From Methanocaldococcus jannaschii DSM 2661 (GTDB taxonomy: Archaea > AGJL01 > Methanococci > Methanococcales > Methanocaldococcaceae): DNA of 32,000 bases. How positions within the stretch are numbered: position 1 is the stretch's first letter; every line of letters starts with the position of its first letter. Positions 20,041 to 29,571 of this stretch are shown piece by piece. Both the position numbers and the translations under genes were made by a program. The notes beneath the pieces are model-generated. The model ran no database searches and had not been told where the DNA came from. It was given only the letters and a program-made list of their open reading frames with translations. Location: assembly GCF_000091665.1 (NCBI RefSeq), contig NC_000909.1, positions 1,576,838-1,608,837 of the forward strand, given 5' to 3'.

Positions 20041-21006
20041 ATAGTGGAGGTGATAGCGTTATCAAAAAATCAAAAATTCCGAGAGTTAAGCGTTTAATAA
20101 AGCTTATGCGAGCTAAGTTTTATCCGATAGTTGCAAAGTATAAATCACCCTATATCCTTAGAGAGATAATCTCTCTAATCGACTTAATAATCTTTTCGGT
20201 TTTATGCATGATATATTTTGCAGGAGTGTATAAATGTGGATATGAGTTTTTAATTGAATATTTACAATTATTAGACGAAATCACTTTGTGATTTCGTTGC
20301 TCTTCGCTTCGCTCCGATTCCCAAAATGTTGTTCATCGATGCAATGCCAATTAAAACAAAAGAGCTTGTGAGGAAAACTCGACATGAGAGGATAGGAATT
20401 TCAAAGCTTATTAAAAAAACAGTAGTATTGGTTACAATCCATCGAAAAAATGTTGGTATTTTGGATATAAAGCAACTTTCATTACCGATGGGAAGTATTT
20501 AATGTTACTGTTTATAAATCCAGCAAATCAGCACGATAAGGATATTTTAGAGGAAAATTATAAAGAAATCATTAGGGACTTCAAAAACTGTGTAATAATC
20601 GGAGATAAGGGCTATATTGATAAAGGTCTCCAAAATCTATTTAAACTCGGAGGCGTTTATTTCATCCCAATAAAAAGAAAAAACATGATAAAACCGAATG
20701 AAGAAGCTAAAAAATATAAAGAGCTGAATAAATTAAGAAAGGCAATCGAAACAAACTTATCCAAATTGGCAGAGTCATTCCCAAGGCACATCCGAGCTGT
20801 AAGCAAGAAAGGTTTAAGTGCTAAGCTTTTACTCTTCACAATCGCTTACAACATACAACATAAAAGAATCAATAAATGAATAAAAACATTTAAATGTGTA
20901 ATGAGAACTACGGTTATATTAAATTATAAACACATGTCTCAAGATTTATACTATAATACATAAATATTTAATAGTAATATATTTATTAATAGTAGCTACC
21001 ACTAAG
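20041..21006 (+). mobile_element. degenerate insertion sequence (IS4/IS5-superfamily, IS982-like; probably the ISAMJ1 family of M. jannaschii); ends not defined
   Basis: Contains the broken transposase gene (20106-20879). The flippase-like reading stops near 20040. The only possible terminal inverted repeat I found (TAGTGG..TAGC at 20042-20057 against GCTACCACTA at 20995-21004) is weak. Confidence 0.4.
20106..20879 (+). pseudogene. DDE transposase, disrupted (internal deletion plus frame changes)
   Basis: Three frame segments. Segment 1 is 20106-20291 (MRAKFYPIV...). Segment 2 is 20326-20414 (MLFIDAMPIKTKELVRKTRHERIGISKLIKK). Segment 3 is 20415-20879 (NSSIGYNPSKKCWYFGYKATFITDGKYLMLLFINPANQHD..IIGDKGYID..RKAIETNLSKL). 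DDE-like triad: FIDAMP / GDKGY / AIET. Confidence 0.7.
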
Positions 21007-21095: not shown

Positions 21096-22634
21096 ATGAT
21101 ATACATTCACAAAAAAATAAAAAATCCTATAAAAGATGGAATTGAAATTGGAGAAGAAATAAAAAGAAATGTGGGAAGAGCATCTTTAATAATATTTATA
21201 ACGTCAATATTAGAGAGAGATAAACTAAAACAGGTATTTGATGGAATGAAACAACATATTCCATTGGATAATCTCATTGGATGTTCTACAGGAGGAACAT
21301 TTAGCGGAAAAGATTACATAAAAGAAGATGGGGTTTTAATATTAGCTTTTGATGAGTATTACAAAAGTGCAATATCTTGTGAAAAAGTAGATAGGGAGGC
21401 TGAATATGTAGGTAAGAAGATAGCCGATAAAATAAAAACCTGTATCAGAGATAAATATCCAAAATTGGATATAGATGATAATTTTTTAGGATTCGTGTTT
21501 TTTGATTGGAATGTAGATAGTGAGCAGGAGATATTAGATGTTTTAGGGAGAGAACTTACAATCCCAATTATCGGAGGGACTGCTGCAGATGATGGTTCAT
21601 TTGATAAGTTTTTCCAAATTTACAAAGGGGAGGTTGTTAAAGATTGCTGTGTATTTGGAGTTGTTGGAGGAAAATTAAAGTTCGATTTAATTTATGGACA
21701 TGGATATGAGCCAACAGATATATATGCAAGGGTTACTAAAGCTGAGGGGAAAGTAGTTTATGAATTAGATGGAAAGCCAGCTTATCAAAGATATTTAGAG
21801 ATGCTCTCAGAATATACAAAACTACCAATGGATATTATTAAAAAATATTTCTACAGAGATTTAAGGCGTTTAGATTTTTACTTAGTGCATCCTCTTGGAT
21901 TTATGGACATTAATGGGAATTATATCACTGCTTTCTTGGAAAGAGTTGAAGAAAATACTTTAGTATTTAGGAGGGATATATTAGAAGGAAGTTTCCTTGT
22001 ATTAATGAAAACGGATATTGAAAAGCAGGTAAAATCAATTGTTGATGAACTAAAAAAGGCTGAAGATTTTGAAAATCCACTAATATTTATAAATGAATGT
22101 TATGGAAGAGAAGTGCTAAAAAACTCAATGTTTAGGGAGTTTGAAGAAGATATTCTTAAATATTTCCTAAATTTCTATAAAGCAGGTAAAAAAGTTGAAG
22201 AGTATGTTATAGAGGACAATTGCATTGGCTGGCTAAGTTATGGCGAAACCATAGCAAAGGACTTAATAAGATTCCACAATAATTTATCATTTACTGGAGT
22301 TATATTTGAATTATCGCAAAGTAGTAATATAAACTGGAGAGAAGAGTTAAAAAATTTCAATTTTGAAGATGATGAGATAGAAGTAATTGTTAATCTAATT
22401 AATAAACAGCTAACAGCTAAAGAGTTATTGCAATTAACGAACTTGTCTCAAACTAAGCTTTACCACATACTAAACAAATTAGAGAAAGAGGGGATTATAA
22501 AGTCTGTAAGTGGGAAACCAAAGTTATATTATATTGATAACATAAAGGAGATTTTACAAAAAACTCATGAAAAAATAGAGCATGAAAACATGGTTAAGAA
22601 AATTAAAAGGAAAAAGTTATTAAGATTACTTTAA
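21096..22634 (+). CDS. FIST-domain sensor fused to a C-terminal TrmB/MarR-like winged-helix DNA-binding domain
   Basis: N-terminal FIST_N/FIST_C-like architecture (LIGCSTGGTFSG, IIGGTAADDG, GWLSYGE). C-terminal LTAKELLQLTNLSQTKLYHILNKLEKEGIIKSVSGKPKLYYI. Confidence 0.7.
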   Translation: MIYIHKKIKNPIKDGIEIGEEIKRNVGRASLIIFITSILERDKLKQVFDGMKQHIPLDNLIGCSTGGTFSGKDYIKEDGVLILAFDEYYKSAISCEKVDREAEYVGKKIADKIKTCIRDKYPKLDIDDNFLGFVFFDWNVDSEQEILDVLGRELTIPIIGGTAADDGSFDKFFQIYKGEVVKDCCVFGVVGGKLKFDLIYGHGYEPTDIYARVTKAEGKVVYELDGKPAYQRYLEMLSEYTKLPMDIIKKYFYRDLRRLDFYLVHPLGFMDINGNYITAFLERVEENTLVFRRDILEGSFLVLMKTDIEKQVKSIVDELKKAEDFENPLIFINECYGREVLKNSMFREFEEDILKYFLNFYKAGKKVEEYVIEDNCIGWLSYGETIAKDLIRFHNNLSFTGVIFELSQSSNINWREELKNFNFEDDEIEVIVNLINKQLTAKELLQLTNLSQTKLYHILNKLEKEGIIKSVSGKPKLYYIDNIKEILQKTHEKIEHENMVKKIKRKKLLRLL

Positions 22635-22658
22635 ACTAATTAATCTATTTGCTCTTTA

Positions 22659-22700
22659 TTAAAATAACCTTTTATTTACATACGAAAATAAGCTTTCTAT
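22659..22700 (-). pseudogene. relic of a second Toprim-gene 3' end (13 codons plus stop)
   Basis: Minus strand reads ATA GAA AGC TTA TTT TCG TAT GTA AAT AAA AGG TTA TTT TAA = IESLFSYVNKRLF*. This is identical in amino acids to the end of the intact gene (22756-22797) but differs at 8 of 14 codons. Confidence 0.8.
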
Positions 22701-22725
22701 CAACCTTTTTAGAAAAAAGGTTGAT
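22699..22725. repeat. hairpin repeat copy B (ATCAACCTTTTT-AGA-AAAAAGGTTGAT)
   Basis: 12-bp perfect stem with a 3-nt loop. Shares CAACCTTTT / AAAAGGTTGATCAAAA with copy A at 23150-23177. Confidence 0.75.
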
Positions 22726-22755
22726 CAAAAACTAATTTAGCGGTTTCCTTATTTA

Positions 22756-23148
22756 TCAGAATAATCGTTTATTCACATATGAGAATAGGCTTTCAATATC
22801 TCTAATACCACTATTTGTATAGATAAATATCTCATGCCTAATTTTTGTATTTACTTTAATTCCTCTATGTCTAAACTCCTCTATTATGGCTTTAGCCAAC
22901 ATTCTGCCTCTTCTATCAAAGTCAGTTAATAGAATAACTTCTTTAACTCTTTTCCTTACAAGTTCATCAGCTATTAAATAAATAGGAGTTTTAGCTATTA
23001 TAATAAAAGTTCCTTCAACTCCTAACTTCTCTAAGCTTTCAACATCTCTCTTTCCTTCAACAATAATTGGTTTTTCCTCTGCTTCAATCTTTAACTCCTC
23101 AATAACTTCTAATAATTTTTCAAAGTATTCATCCCTTCTCATAGCCAT
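22756..23148 (-). CDS. small Toprim-domain protein (UPF0292-like, RNase M5/primase-type Toprim)
   Basis: Toprim signature: IIVEGKRDVESL (catalytic Glu) and VILLTDFDRRGRMLA (DxD). Start set at ATG 23146-23148, because the upstream 9 codons of the ORF are just the hairpin repeat. Confidence 0.8.
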   Translation of the reverse strand: MAMRRDEYFEKLLEVIEELKIEAEEKPIIVEGKRDVESLEKLGVEGTFIIIAKTPIYLIADELVRKRVKEVILLTDFDRRGRMLAKAIIEEFRHRGIKVNTKIRHEIFIYTNSGIRDIESLFSYVNKRLF

Positions 23149-23149
23149 C

Positions 23150-23170
23150 CAACCTTTTACTAAAAGGTTG
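23150..23170. repeat. hairpin repeat copy A (CAACCTTTT-ACT-AAAAGGTTG), abutting the Toprim start codon
   Basis: 9-bp perfect stem with a 3-nt loop. On the mRNA (minus) strand the 3' arm AAAAGGUUG is followed by G-AUG. Confidence 0.75.
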
Positions 23171-23177
23171 ATCAAAA

Positions 23178-23217
23178 CGGATGCACTACCTCGCTACGCT
23201 CGGCAGTGCCTCTTAAT
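23178..23217 (-). repeat. truncated copy (T) of the two-hairpin element: hairpin-1 module only
   Basis: GGATGCA-CTACC-TCGCTACGCTC-GGCAG-TGCCTCTTAA aligns with 29398-29435 (GGATGCA-TCATC-TCGCTACGCTC-GATGA-TGCCTCTTAA). Flanks and loop are identical and the stem differs by paired substitutions. Confidence 0.6.
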
Positions 23218-23240
23218 TATGCCTATGAAGGTAACGGAAG

Positions 23241-25313
23241 TTATAAATCCCCAATTATCGGTTTTAAGATTAATTTTTGTTCTTCAGTAGTAATATTTTT
23301 CAAAATCTTCTTTATTAGCTTTTTATCCTCTTCATTTGCAGAACTATACATTCCAGCAAGCAAATATATAAAATCTTCTAAAAGCTCTGGTCTTTTCTCA
23401 CTAACTTTAAGCAGTATTTTTAAAGCAGAGTTTCTCTTATCTGTATTCAACAACTCCCTAATACTATGTATGTTATTCGGATATTTAAATATAACGTTTG
23501 ATATAACATCTATCATTAATTTATCCTCTCCCCTATAATTACCAATTTCATTAATCAATATTGGAAGAACAAGCTCATTTGGGTAGTTTTTAAAAAATTC
23601 CAAAGCCATTAGTCTTAATTTCTTTGTTGAGTATATCATTTCAGCAATCTTTGGAATTAATAAATTTATTTTTTCTTCATCTAACAATTTCTCATCAATA
23701 AACTTTTTAACCCCATTGATAAAAGCTAATTTTGAATAATAACCTTCCGCCATATTTATAATCTCTCCAATCTTATCAACTCTATTTAAAGATGCATAAA
23801 TCATAATTTTGTTTGCATTTAATACATCTTTATCTTCCATCTCTGCCTTTTCAGTTACCTCCAAAATTTTCTTAGCTAAATTATCATCTATTTTATTGTT
23901 GTTAATCACAATCCCAGACAAATAAGTTATAAGTTCTCCATCTCTTTTAACATCTTCTAAAAACTCATGAATATCTATTAGGTTTAGATTTTTAACCCCT
24001 ATTAATTCCATTGTTCTATAAAATTCATAACCAAGTTTTTCAGATATCTTTAAATCATTATAATGGATATCATTTTTTAAACAAATCTCTGCTACAATCT
24101 CCTCTATCAATCTCATGGCAACATTGCATTTCCTTATTTCCTCTTCCATCATTAACAAATGTCTAAATCCTCCCATAAATTTCTCTTCTTCTAATTTATA
24201 AACTAACTCTTTCAATCGCTTATGTTCATTAATTAAAAATTCTAAATGCTCTTTTTTTGCAAATTCTTTTAATATTCTTAGAGATGATATTTTTAATCCT
24301 AAATTCATCTTTTTTGCATACATCAATGTTTTATTTTCTATATATTTTTTTAACTCATTATTATTTTGAGCTATCTTCTTAAGTTCTCTTATGGCAGCGG
24401 TTTTTGCTTTCCCATATCCATAATTTAAAAATCTAAATAATAAATCAACCTTCTTTTTTGAATCTTTTTTTAATGATATTAATTTAACTCCAACAAACTG
24501 CTTCTCTTCATCCCCAGTATATAAAAAGTCTTTTAAAAACTCTCTATTGTAAAAGTTAGCAGGAAGTTTGATATTTTCTCTTAAAATTATATTTAGGGTA
24601 GTTTTTCCATGAGATTTTAGTAGTGATTTTATTTGCTCATCTGATAACTCAGCTGGAATATCCAATTTTTCAAATAGCTGTTTAAATTTTCTATATAGCT
24701 TCTTATCTTCATCCCCCAATAAGGAGACACTTAAATGACCCCTTAGGATATTTTTTTGTTCGTCAGTTAAAGAATCAACTATATTCAACAATATATTTAT
24801 TGTAAGTTCCCTCTCATCTTTTTCTGAGGAATATAACTTATTAGCTAAGATTTTTAATATCATCTCTGAATTATAATTTTTTAATAAGATTTTTATACTT
24901 TCTTCCATGTTTTTACTTTTTGTATGTTCAAGGATGGCTCTAAAGAAAATATTTCCTTCTTTCATATTTTGTAGGAATAAATAAACTATTTTTTCATCCA
25001 AAGGTTTTTTTGCAATTTCAAGTATTGCCTCTTCAACACTCTCTTTGTTGGTTATTTTCTTTAATATTTCTTCCGCCTCTTTGGCTATAATTCTTTTTTC
25101 ATTTAAATTTAAGAGGATATAATATAGATATCTCTCAATTACCTCGTTATCTAACCTTTTTAAAACCAACAATGCTCTTCTTACATCATCTTTTTTGTTA
25201 GATGTAAATAACTCATCTAAAAAACTTAAAATATCTGAATAACTATTAATTAACTTAGCTAATTTATCATATTTCCCCTGTCTTAAATACTTTAAAAACT
25301 CTTCCCTCTCCAT
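23241..25313 (-). CDS. 690-aa all-helical repeat protein (HEAT/ARM-like), function unknown
   Basis: Start set at ATG 25311-25313 (MEREEFLKYL) with a GTGATAAT SD. Sequence is K/E/L/I-rich repeated amphipathic helices with no catalytic motif recognised. The longer ORF to 25538 overlaps the divergent NFACT gene. Confidence 0.75.
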   Translation of the reverse strand: MEREEFLKYLRQGKYDKLAKLINSYSDILSFLDELFTSNKKDDVRRALLVLKRLDNEVIERYLYYILLNLNEKRIIAKEAEEILKKITNKESVEEAILEIAKKPLDEKIVYLFLQNMKEGNIFFRAILEHTKSKNMEESIKILLKNYNSEMILKILANKLYSSEKDERELTINILLNIVDSLTDEQKNILRGHLSVSLLGDEDKKLYRKFKQLFEKLDIPAELSDEQIKSLLKSHGKTTLNIILRENIKLPANFYNREFLKDFLYTGDEEKQFVGVKLISLKKDSKKKVDLLFRFLNYGYGKAKTAAIRELKKIAQNNNELKKYIENKTLMYAKKMNLGLKISSLRILKEFAKKEHLEFLINEHKRLKELVYKLEEEKFMGGFRHLLMMEEEIRKCNVAMRLIEEIVAEICLKNDIHYNDLKISEKLGYEFYRTMELIGVKNLNLIDIHEFLEDVKRDGELITYLSGIVINNNKIDDNLAKKILEVTEKAEMEDKDVLNANKIMIYASLNRVDKIGEIINMAEGYYSKLAFINGVKKFIDEKLLDEEKINLLIPKIAEMIYSTKKLRLMALEFFKNYPNELVLPILINEIGNYRGEDKLMIDVISNVIFKYPNNIHSIRELLNTDKRNSALKILLKVSEKRPELLEDFIYLLAGMYSSANEEDKKLIKKILKNITTEEQKLILKPIIGDL

Positions 25314-29284: not shown

Positions 29285-29331
29285 AAAAATCCCTAATAAT
29301 TTTTAATTATAAAGATAATAAAATTTAAAGA

Positions 29332-29440
29332 TTTAATAAATAACGCCTCTCAGACAGTGCCGGAACCATAGGGCTACCGCCCTATTGGTATACCCAGGGA
29401 TGCATCATCTCGCTACGCTCGATGATGCCTCTTAAAATTT
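29332..29440 (-). repeat. two-hairpin GC-rich element (copy R), complete, immediately 3' of the C/D sRNA
   Basis: Minus-strand sense: TTAAGAG-[GCATCATC-GAGCGTAGCGA-GATGATGC]-ATCCCTGGGTAT-[ACCAATAGGGC-GGTA-GCCCTATGG]-TTCCGGCACTGTCTGAGAGGCGTTATTTATTAAA. The last 31 nt repeat the sRNA 3' end. Confidence 0.65.
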
Positions 29441-29453
29441 TTTAATAAATAAT

Positions 29454-29520
29454 ACCTCTCAGACAGTGCCGATTTCTTCATCCCAAAAAGGTCAGTGGGG
29501 GTAACTTTCATCATCGAGGT
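29454..29520 (-). ncRNA. C/D box sRNA (2'-O-methylation guide), dual 12-nt guides
   Basis: Minus strand: ACCUC-G-AUGAUGA(C)-AAGUUACCCCCA-CUGA(D')-CCUUUUUGGG-AUGAAGA(C')-AAUCGGCACUGU-CUGA(D)-GAGGU. Perfect C and D boxes, both spacers exactly 12 nt, and a 5-bp terminal stem ACCUC/GAGGU. Confidence 0.8.
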
Positions 29521-29571
29521 TAAAATATTTGGTAGTTATACCGTAATAACTTTATTCTTATTCTTGATGTA

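Follow-up and report, generated by a model that had tools for sequence, protein, structure and literature searches.

Homology-facilitated illegitimate recombination, as known from naturally transformable bacteria, proceeds from a homology anchor on one side and a microhomology of a few bases on the other, and both this process and xenologous displacement can leave behind a duplicated stump of resident sequence. To our knowledge, homology-facilitated illegitimate recombination has not been shown in a hyperthermophilic archaeon of the kind of Methanocaldococcus jannaschii. Here, we describe a locus of M. jannaschii DSM 2661 at which the gene of a Toprim-domain protein is followed downstream by a second, untranslated copy of its own last 13 codons and stop (hereafter, the relic), with a hairpin at the junction. 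The locus lies in a window of 32,000 nucleotides (nt; NC_000909.1, positions 1,576,838 to 1,608,837), by which we mean the whole stretch of DNA that was analysed. The arrangement is like xenologous displacement in situ in that the two copies differ as two functional alleles do. Unlike in described cases of such displacement, no donor was identified here, the junction falls at the foot of a hairpin, and only ~100 nt are demonstrably different. It is also like the attL/attR duplications of integrated elements, with a functional replacement 3' end upstream and what would be the displaced native end as an untranslated direct repeat downstream, and unlike them in that the block spans 97 nt, no integrase lies within ~3 kb, and the repeats do not start with an identical core. 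A partial tandem duplication with subsequent decay likewise places an untranslated direct repeat of a gene end beside the gene; unlike a decayed gene fragment, the relic carries neither replacement changes nor indels, while its tail has diverged by 26 percent.

The hairpin itself has described counterparts. Bacterial repetitive extragenic palindromes (REPs) and bacterial interspersed mosaic elements (BIMEs) are hairpins with a conserved 5' tetranucleotide and are mobilised by REP-associated tyrosine transposases (RAYT enzymes). Like them, the hairpin family found here has a short covarying stem and an invariant 5' single-stranded TTTTGAT, is intergenic in either orientation, and sometimes forms arrays; unlike them, it spans archaeal phyla, shows no Y1 enzyme among the neighbours seen, and is rare in this genome, with 2 copies in the 32 kb studied here. 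M. jannaschii also carries the MJRE repeats, reportedly 141 elements of ~100 nt on average and 14.3 kb in total. In the descriptions available, MJRE1-3 (Suyama, Lathe and Bork 2005, FEBS Lett 579:5281; cited in PMC2229807 and PMC2996958) are palindromic, intergenic, and in part merged with coding sequence, and they reside in the same genome; the hairpin at our junction, at 27-53 nt, is shorter than the MJREs as described.

The features on which the analysis rests are as follows, in window coordinates.

22756-23148, minus strand: live Toprim gene (UPF0292 family), 130 amino acids (aa), open reading frame (ORF) from the ATG at 23148
22756-22797, minus strand: S1, the live last 13 codons plus TGA, with a TAA following the TGA in frame
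22729-22755, minus strand: tail 1, the 27 non-coding nt that follow the live stop; a homologue of tail 2
22659-22700, minus strand: S2, the relic, 13 codons plus TAA, untranslatable
22633-22658, minus strand: tail 2, the 26 nt that follow the stop of the relic and end with 2 nt of the FIST stop codon
21096-22634, plus strand: convergent FIST-TrmB regulator gene, from ORF and Pfam
22699-22730, no strand: hairpin B, a perfect 12-bp stem (22714-22725 / 22699-22710) with a 3-nt loop and a 5' TTTTTG flank, from RNA folding
23150-23177, no strand: hairpin A, the same motif as B (TTTTGAT CAACCTTTT AGT AAAAGGTTG), abutting the Toprim ATG

Read on the minus strand, S1 (22797-22756) consists of the codons ATT GAA AGC CTA TTC TCA TAT GTG AAT AAA CGA TTA TTC TGA, and S2 (22700-22659) of ATA GAA AGC TTA TTT TCG TAT GTA AAT AAA AGG TTA TTT TAA; both translate identically, as IESLFSYVNKRLF*. 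The second copy is thus real, and 8 of its 14 codons, corresponding to 9 nucleotides (CGA/AGG counts two), differ from the live end exactly as a prior reading of the sequence alone (the sequence-only reading) had listed, every difference being synonymous or stop-to-stop. The relic lies downstream of the gene at an offset of 97 nt from the live end. Together with the tails, the repeat unit measures 69/68 nt (42 coding plus 27/26 nt of tail); its left border is precisely codon -13, and at its right border it takes in 2 nt of the FIST stop codon. Local alignment of the two copies scored 56; shuffled sequences (n = 500) averaged 18.7 and reached 29 at most. Similarity past the stops had been put at 17 of 27 positions; a gapped alignment gives a higher count, 20/27 identical positions with one gap and closes on the exact 9-mer AATTAGTTT, and the tails by themselves are alike beyond chance (p = 0.004). 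This 9-mer, at the distal edge, is also the longest identical run between the copies, whose proximal edges have only GAAAGC in common.

Two trivial origins that the sequence-only reading had named as fatal to it were examined. An assembly artefact is ruled out, in that nine contigs assembled independently of one another (Logan, JGI, ENA) agree in every letter over a stretch of 169 nt. Membership of an unrelated repeat family found no support in the window, in which no further copy of the relic occurs at up to 3 mismatches; the hairpin does belong to a family, and the 42 nt lie outside it. The relic is evidently derived from the Toprim gene, and the match is probably not due to a repeat family, because the peptide of the relic is the native C-terminus of the Toprim family in all relatives compared. 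We also considered whether the relic is expressed. No ORF of at least 30 aa covers it; its frame is +1 to the live gene, a TGA lies in frame 7 codons upstream, and its sole possible start is the abutting TTG, so that translation is ruled out by the wrong frame and the upstream stop. Read-through or selenocysteine extension of the live gene is excluded by the TAA directly after the live TGA, and bypass or frameshifting would yield a protein product no different from the present one.

For comparison, we assembled ~20 related loci from complete genomes, metagenome-assembled genomes (MAGs), and vent-metagenome contigs, with proteins 81-99 percent identical and with Methanocaldococcus sp. FS406-22, sp. 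28A, and sp. 16A among the named genomes. None of these loci contains the relic, the tails, a full hairpin A, hairpin B, the GC-rich insert described below, or a Toprim paralogue. Where FIST adjoins in these relatives, the stop codons of Toprim and FIST share a 4-nt overlap. The relatives have only this compact overlap and none of the relic, tails, or hairpins, and the additional spacer of 121 nt is therefore specific to the M. jannaschii genome. A short trace of the ancestral layout may survive on the FIST side: TTAGTTTAA at 22631-22639, spanning the FIST stop codon, is an 8/9 match to the relatives' Toprim end TTATTTTAA in the same overlapping register, and may mark the position of the ancestral overlap and the original gene end. 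For the 19 nt between TTAGTTTAA and the relic stop no origin was identified. The idea that the tails are an older, decayed copy of the gene end found no support, as their alignment scores were no better than those of shuffles (p 0.66-0.84).

The relic, which lies on the FIST side of the locus, differs from the relatives at 6-8/42 positions and the live end at 10-13/42; the allele closest to the relic is of the type of locus L017, with 6/42 differences and an identical last 18 nt. The G+C content of S1 is 12/42 versus 8-9/42 in the relic and the relatives, i.e., the live end is GC-enriched. Judged from these alignments, it is the live end, not the relic, that is the odd copy. Polarisation with outgroups assigns most derived states to the live copy, namely two TTC codons, TCA, TGA, and the rare CGA; 5/6 of the derived live-end changes run from AT to GC, and both TTATTTT runs are broken. 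Several live-end states are seen elsewhere (ATT GAA AGC CTA TTC in L163, CTA TTC in L003, CGA and TGA in L004), and this recurrence in other lineages would fit allelic variation. On the relic, private changes number 1-3 (TCG clearly, ATA and GTA perhaps).

This polarity affects the strongest claim of the sequence-only reading, that both copies "must" have diverged as functional genes since a dead fragment would not avoid all replacement sites. Silence on the live copy is guaranteed by selection, and therefore the decay argument bears only on the 1-3 changes of the relic, all of which would be silent by chance with probabilities of 0.23, 0.05, and 0.011 for 1, 2, and 3 changes, respectively. 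A stronger argument comes from rates: when the tails, which differ at 7/27 positions, are used as a local clock, a relic that was neutral over all that time is expected to carry ~7 changes, ~5 of them replacements, versus none observed (P ~0.005). The claim that both copies were functional is thus supported at P ~0.005-0.05 and not proven; it was largely right but overstated. Silent differences between S1 and S2 (8 plus the stop) exceed the tail-based expectation of ~3. The last 13 codons are, moreover, a silent-site hot spot in all lineage pairs (6-10/42 nt differ), with the gene body differing from its closest relatives at 21-23/345 nt (~0.3 silent differences per silent site). Comparisons between L017- and FS406-type loci show 5.5-6.5 silent differences on ~7 silent sites (0.79-0.93 per site) in these codons versus ~0.35 in the gene body. 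Among the relatives, replacements in the last 13 codons comprise L/M at the penultimate residue (FS406-type), an extra Ser (L002, L003), and more in the distant L004 and L163.

The exact placement of a hairpin at the junction and its twin at the gene start, like the relic's closeness to the relatives and the oddness of the live end, had not been recognised in the sequence-only reading. Hairpin B sits exactly between the repeat copies and shares the first 2 nt of the relic; its predicted fold has -12.4 kcal/mol (z = -3.5), and its T5/T6 runs read as oligo-T tracts on both strands. The palindrome around it (22686-22738) reaches past the perfect stem, with 21/25 paired positions per arm, and the first 15 nt of the relic are complementary to the end of tail 1 at 11/15 positions (background P ~0.001). 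Hairpin A lies 447 nt away; A and B are direct repeats, each right before Toprim-derived sequence, and the right arm of A is also the ribosome-binding region. A regular-expression scan counted the motif 2 times in the 32-kb window and 0 times in roughly 60 kb of relatives. GTTT occurs before hairpin A (CCGTTT|TGATC) and closes both tails (TTAGTTT|). To the right of hairpin B, neither a 5' part of the gene nor a second full copy was found, and the hairpin directly abuts codon -13. No bacterial-type intrinsic terminator (a GC-rich stem followed by a T-run) occurs in 22400-23400, in which T-runs are placed 5' of and inside the stem. A search with Rfam gave nothing at gathering score in the window, and for 22550-23300 a chance-level match only. 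Origin of a hairpin arm from the FIST 3' end was rejected, the similarity being weak (score 9-11).

Some of the hairpin A sequence is shared. The lineage comprising L017-L020, L005/6, and L150 carries AAAGGTTGG ATG upstream of the gene, which corresponds to the right arm of hairpin A only, and therefore some form of hairpin A probably predates the split from the L017-type lineage. More specifically, L017-L020 and L005 read GTTTAAAGGTTGGATG upstream of the Toprim ATG where the window reads GTTT[TGATCAACCTTTTAGTA]AAAGGTTGGATG, a clean 17-nt indel. Beyond hairpin A lies one further element:

23179-23216, no strand: GC-rich hairpin element, an insertion that separates hairpin A from the upstream gene and is missing in relatives

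This 38-nt element has two copies in the window (23179-23216 and 29398-29435), both of the form GGATGC-stem-CTCGCTACGCTCG-stem-GCCTCTTAA, and the stems of the two copies differ by compensatory changes (CACTACC/GGCAGTG versus CATCATC/GATGATG). In L024 and L163 the upstream neighbour of Toprim is not the usual 690-aa gene, and a GC-rich hairpin (CACCGCCCTAAAGGGCGGTG) stands there instead, which suggests a different local arrangement in these two loci.

The explanation that we tentatively favour, with a probability of roughly 0.45, is that the resident Toprim gene had its 3' end displaced by recombination with a divergent Methanocaldococcus allele, and that the relic is this older end, left in place. 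The incoming stretch would have consisted of the last 13 codons, stop, 27-nt tail, and hairpin of this other allele; its left join would have formed by homology within the gene, and its right join illegitimately, at the foot of the hairpin and immediately upstream of resident codon -13. By another route, a whole allelic copy (hairpin, gene, and tail) would have been added in tandem, with most of the resident copy deleted afterwards. The outcome would be a gene that ends with incoming codons, while the last 42 nt of the resident and its tail persist downstream, untranslated, where the convergent FIST gene probably now includes them in its 3' untranslated region; hairpin B could then be the source of oligo-T termination signals for both convergent genes. 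We infer on this basis that the two ends evolved in separate genomes and that the live end is the one that came in. Allelic replacement accounts for the lack of replacement changes in either end and for the resemblance of the relic to the relatives, and the former is easier to explain if each of two lineages had the gene in one copy only than if there were redundant paralogues.

Several observations weigh against allelic replacement. (i) A donor with the full live-type end was not found among the sampled relatives, and no intermediate was found either; the alignment across Methanocaldococcus, from which the sequence-only reading had hoped to learn which lineage matches the relic, places the relic's codons nearest the L017-type allele and identifies no donor lineage for the live end. 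(ii) Both copies have homologous tails that are missing from every sampled relative, and therefore donor and recipient would need to be close sisters; yet their coding ends differ at 9/42 positions, as much as those of separate species (6-10/42). (iii) No foreign tract was seen in the gene body or the flanking genes. (iv) The two hairpins in the same relative position, together with the shared GTTT, fit a tandem duplication more naturally. (v) The sample amounts to 14 codons, with as few private changes on the relic as given above. The sequence-only reading had offered either xenologous replacement or a tandem duplicate later deleted down to its end; the best explanation is one of these, and the genomes at hand do not separate them.

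If the allelic-replacement explanation is true, the 42-nt stump would preserve, at the resolution of a single junction, physical evidence of recombination between Methanocaldococcus lineages; such evidence is rare, and what is known of gene exchange in this organism comes mostly from phylogenies. The stump would also show the separation, in one lineage, of convergent genes that overlap in all relatives, and their provision with a shared oligo-T hairpin. The relic itself is small and non-functional, a gene-end stump of a generally known kind and most likely a tidy but fairly ordinary trace of recombination; the main interest lies in such a dated trace at a convergent gene pair and in the hairpin that marks the junction.

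The alternative that survives best, though we consider it somewhat unlikely, is an in-genome tandem duplication of hairpin, Toprim gene, and tail (~545 nt), followed by long divergence of two functional genes through silent changes only, and by deletion of the downstream copy from just after its hairpin to codon -14. Two events suffice for the geometry, which this alternative fits best of all: the direct repetition of hairpins A and B ahead of Toprim-derived sequence and the homology of the tails would both follow, and the occurrence of a rare hairpin twice within 447 nt suggests one duplication. The GTTT before hairpin A and at the end of both tails is as expected at microhomology endpoints, but GTTTT belongs to the conserved flank of the hairpin family, and these endpoints therefore argue only weakly for duplication at microhomology. 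Other points speak against a paralogue. Redundancy should relax selection on one copy, and neither end has a replacement change; silent divergence of 9/42 is at the between-species level, so the duplicate would have to have been kept for approximately the whole age of the lineage in a compact genome; no relative carries a second copy or an intermediate, and the sequence to the right of hairpin B is nothing like the 5' end of the gene.

Less probable still, we think, is a local tandem duplication of 97 nt (end, tail, and hairpin), after which a neutral relic happened to change silently while the live end was recoded by selection or by a biased process. Possible drivers of such recoding would be the loss of early-terminating T-runs or a lowered identity between the repeats, and several of the results described above agree with it: most changes fall on the live copy and look directional rather than clock-like (AT to GC, with the TTATTTT runs broken), the private changes of the relic are so few that their silence has a probability of between 0.23 and 0.011, and every lineage pair has a silent-site hot spot in these codons at the gene's end. 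The calibration from the tails, by which a neutral relic should carry ~7 changes and 5 replacements, contradicts it; the recurrence of several live-copy states in other lineages is easier to understand as allelic variation, and independent evidence for selection of this type is absent.

We regard as improbable, and slightly more so, a scheme in which a small mobile element, the hairpin, took along the adjacent 69 nt when it moved in from this locus in another strain; the 97-nt block would then be an insertion that brought a replacement gene end. This scheme overlaps with the allelic-replacement explanation. The anomalous sequence coincides exactly with a hairpin-bounded block, and the hairpin family is dispersed and multi-copy in many archaea, in one case inside a tRNA intron. 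However, no transposase, integrase, or Y1 enzyme was found near the locus or seen among 100 hairpin-neighbouring genes, an identical crossover core is missing (the longest shared run, of 9 nt, lies at the far end), and flank transduction was not seen at other hairpin loci. The more general proposition, that the hairpin is an undescribed archaea-wide mobile or recombinogenic element that mediated the capture and insertion of a gene end here, we hold to be doubtful as well; were it true, hairpin-bounded blocks would be a route for swaps of 3' ends between archaeal lineages, uncoupling overlapping convergent genes. Least likely is that selection acts on the relic, be it on a peptide or on the nucleotide sequence (in the FIST 3' untranslated region, or as an antisense partner of the Toprim mRNA end): its zero replacements, the pairing of its first 15 nt, as the outer part of the extended palindrome, with the end of tail 1, and transcription of its complement if FIST transcripts reach hairpin B would agree with selection, but it has no usable frame (its TTG lacks spacing to a ribosome-binding site), read-through from the live TGA stops at once at the TAA, selection for RNA pairing would not preserve codon identity, and all relatives lack it.

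The hairpin family was delineated with an exact pattern over metagenome contigs, which returned at least 120 stretches (loci L026-L145). TTTT preceded ~125 of the 132 exact matches listed, though the pattern did not require it, giving a family form of TTTTGAT followed by a covarying stem around a fixed CTTTT-loop-AAAAG. As an unbiased test, we took half-sites of the form TTTGAT-N4-CTTTT with other stems, variants that occur in the same contigs, and 21/30 had a perfectly complementary partner; therefore, the pairing is selected, while TTTTGAT and CTTTT/AAAAG stay fixed. The contigs whose origin was checked are archaeal, belonging to Diapherotrites, Altiarchaeales, Methanobacterium, and a Euryarchaeota MAG, and carry nearly the same sequence. 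The copies are mostly intergenic and in either orientation, with arrays at L056, L059, L089, and L107. A role as a promoter or terminator element was rejected, as there was no clear preference of orientation or distance; linkage to tRNAs was rejected, as only 12 of the 132 listed matches lie within 150 nt of a tRNA; and an identity as an IS200/IS605 end was rejected for want of transposase families nearby. No transposase family stood among the top 25 Pfam families, by number of matches, of 100 proteins encoded next to hairpins, where the genes are housekeeping genes; such an enzyme may be encoded elsewhere in the genomes. No Rfam family matched the hairpins of 8 metagenome loci, and searches of the literature by sequence string and keyword found nothing matching. 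The family is possibly of wider interest, given that nearly the same sequence recurs in distant archaeal groups and has been matched to nothing described. In L099, a 139-nt tRNA match (447-585; Rfam tRNA, 50.5 bits) has an intron that contains a hairpin copy, and in L073 a tRNA-like 5' half abuts another copy. Eleven contigs of viral collections (L151-L161), giant-virus MAGs included, also bear the exact hairpin pattern; L041 and L156 are both 28,722 bp long. In AT-rich contigs the motif is often TTTGGATCAACC..., in tandem arrays or inside ORFs, and this AT-rich giant-virus-type motif may be a different class.

The live gene product matches Toprim, Toprim_4, and Toprim_2 in Pfam, its homologues are named UPF0292 or toprim domain protein, and its gene has a second possible ATG at 23142. 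Within ~3 kb of the repeats lie genes for NFACT, an unassigned 690-aa protein, Toprim, FIST-TrmB, and a DDE transposase fragment. The last belongs to two adjacent short ORFs of 58 and 125 aa (20326-20879) that immediately precede the FIST gene; the product of the 125-aa ORF matches DDE_Tnp_1, and this pair is a fragmented insertion sequence. Elsewhere in the window, the GC-rich intergenic region 29285-29571 holds a 31-nt direct repeat (29332-29362 / 29441-29471, 94 percent). Several archaeal C/D box small RNA (sRNA) families match this region below threshold at 29456-29518 on the minus strand (sR12 24.4 bits, E = 0.004), and these matches probably represent an unannotated C/D box sRNA.

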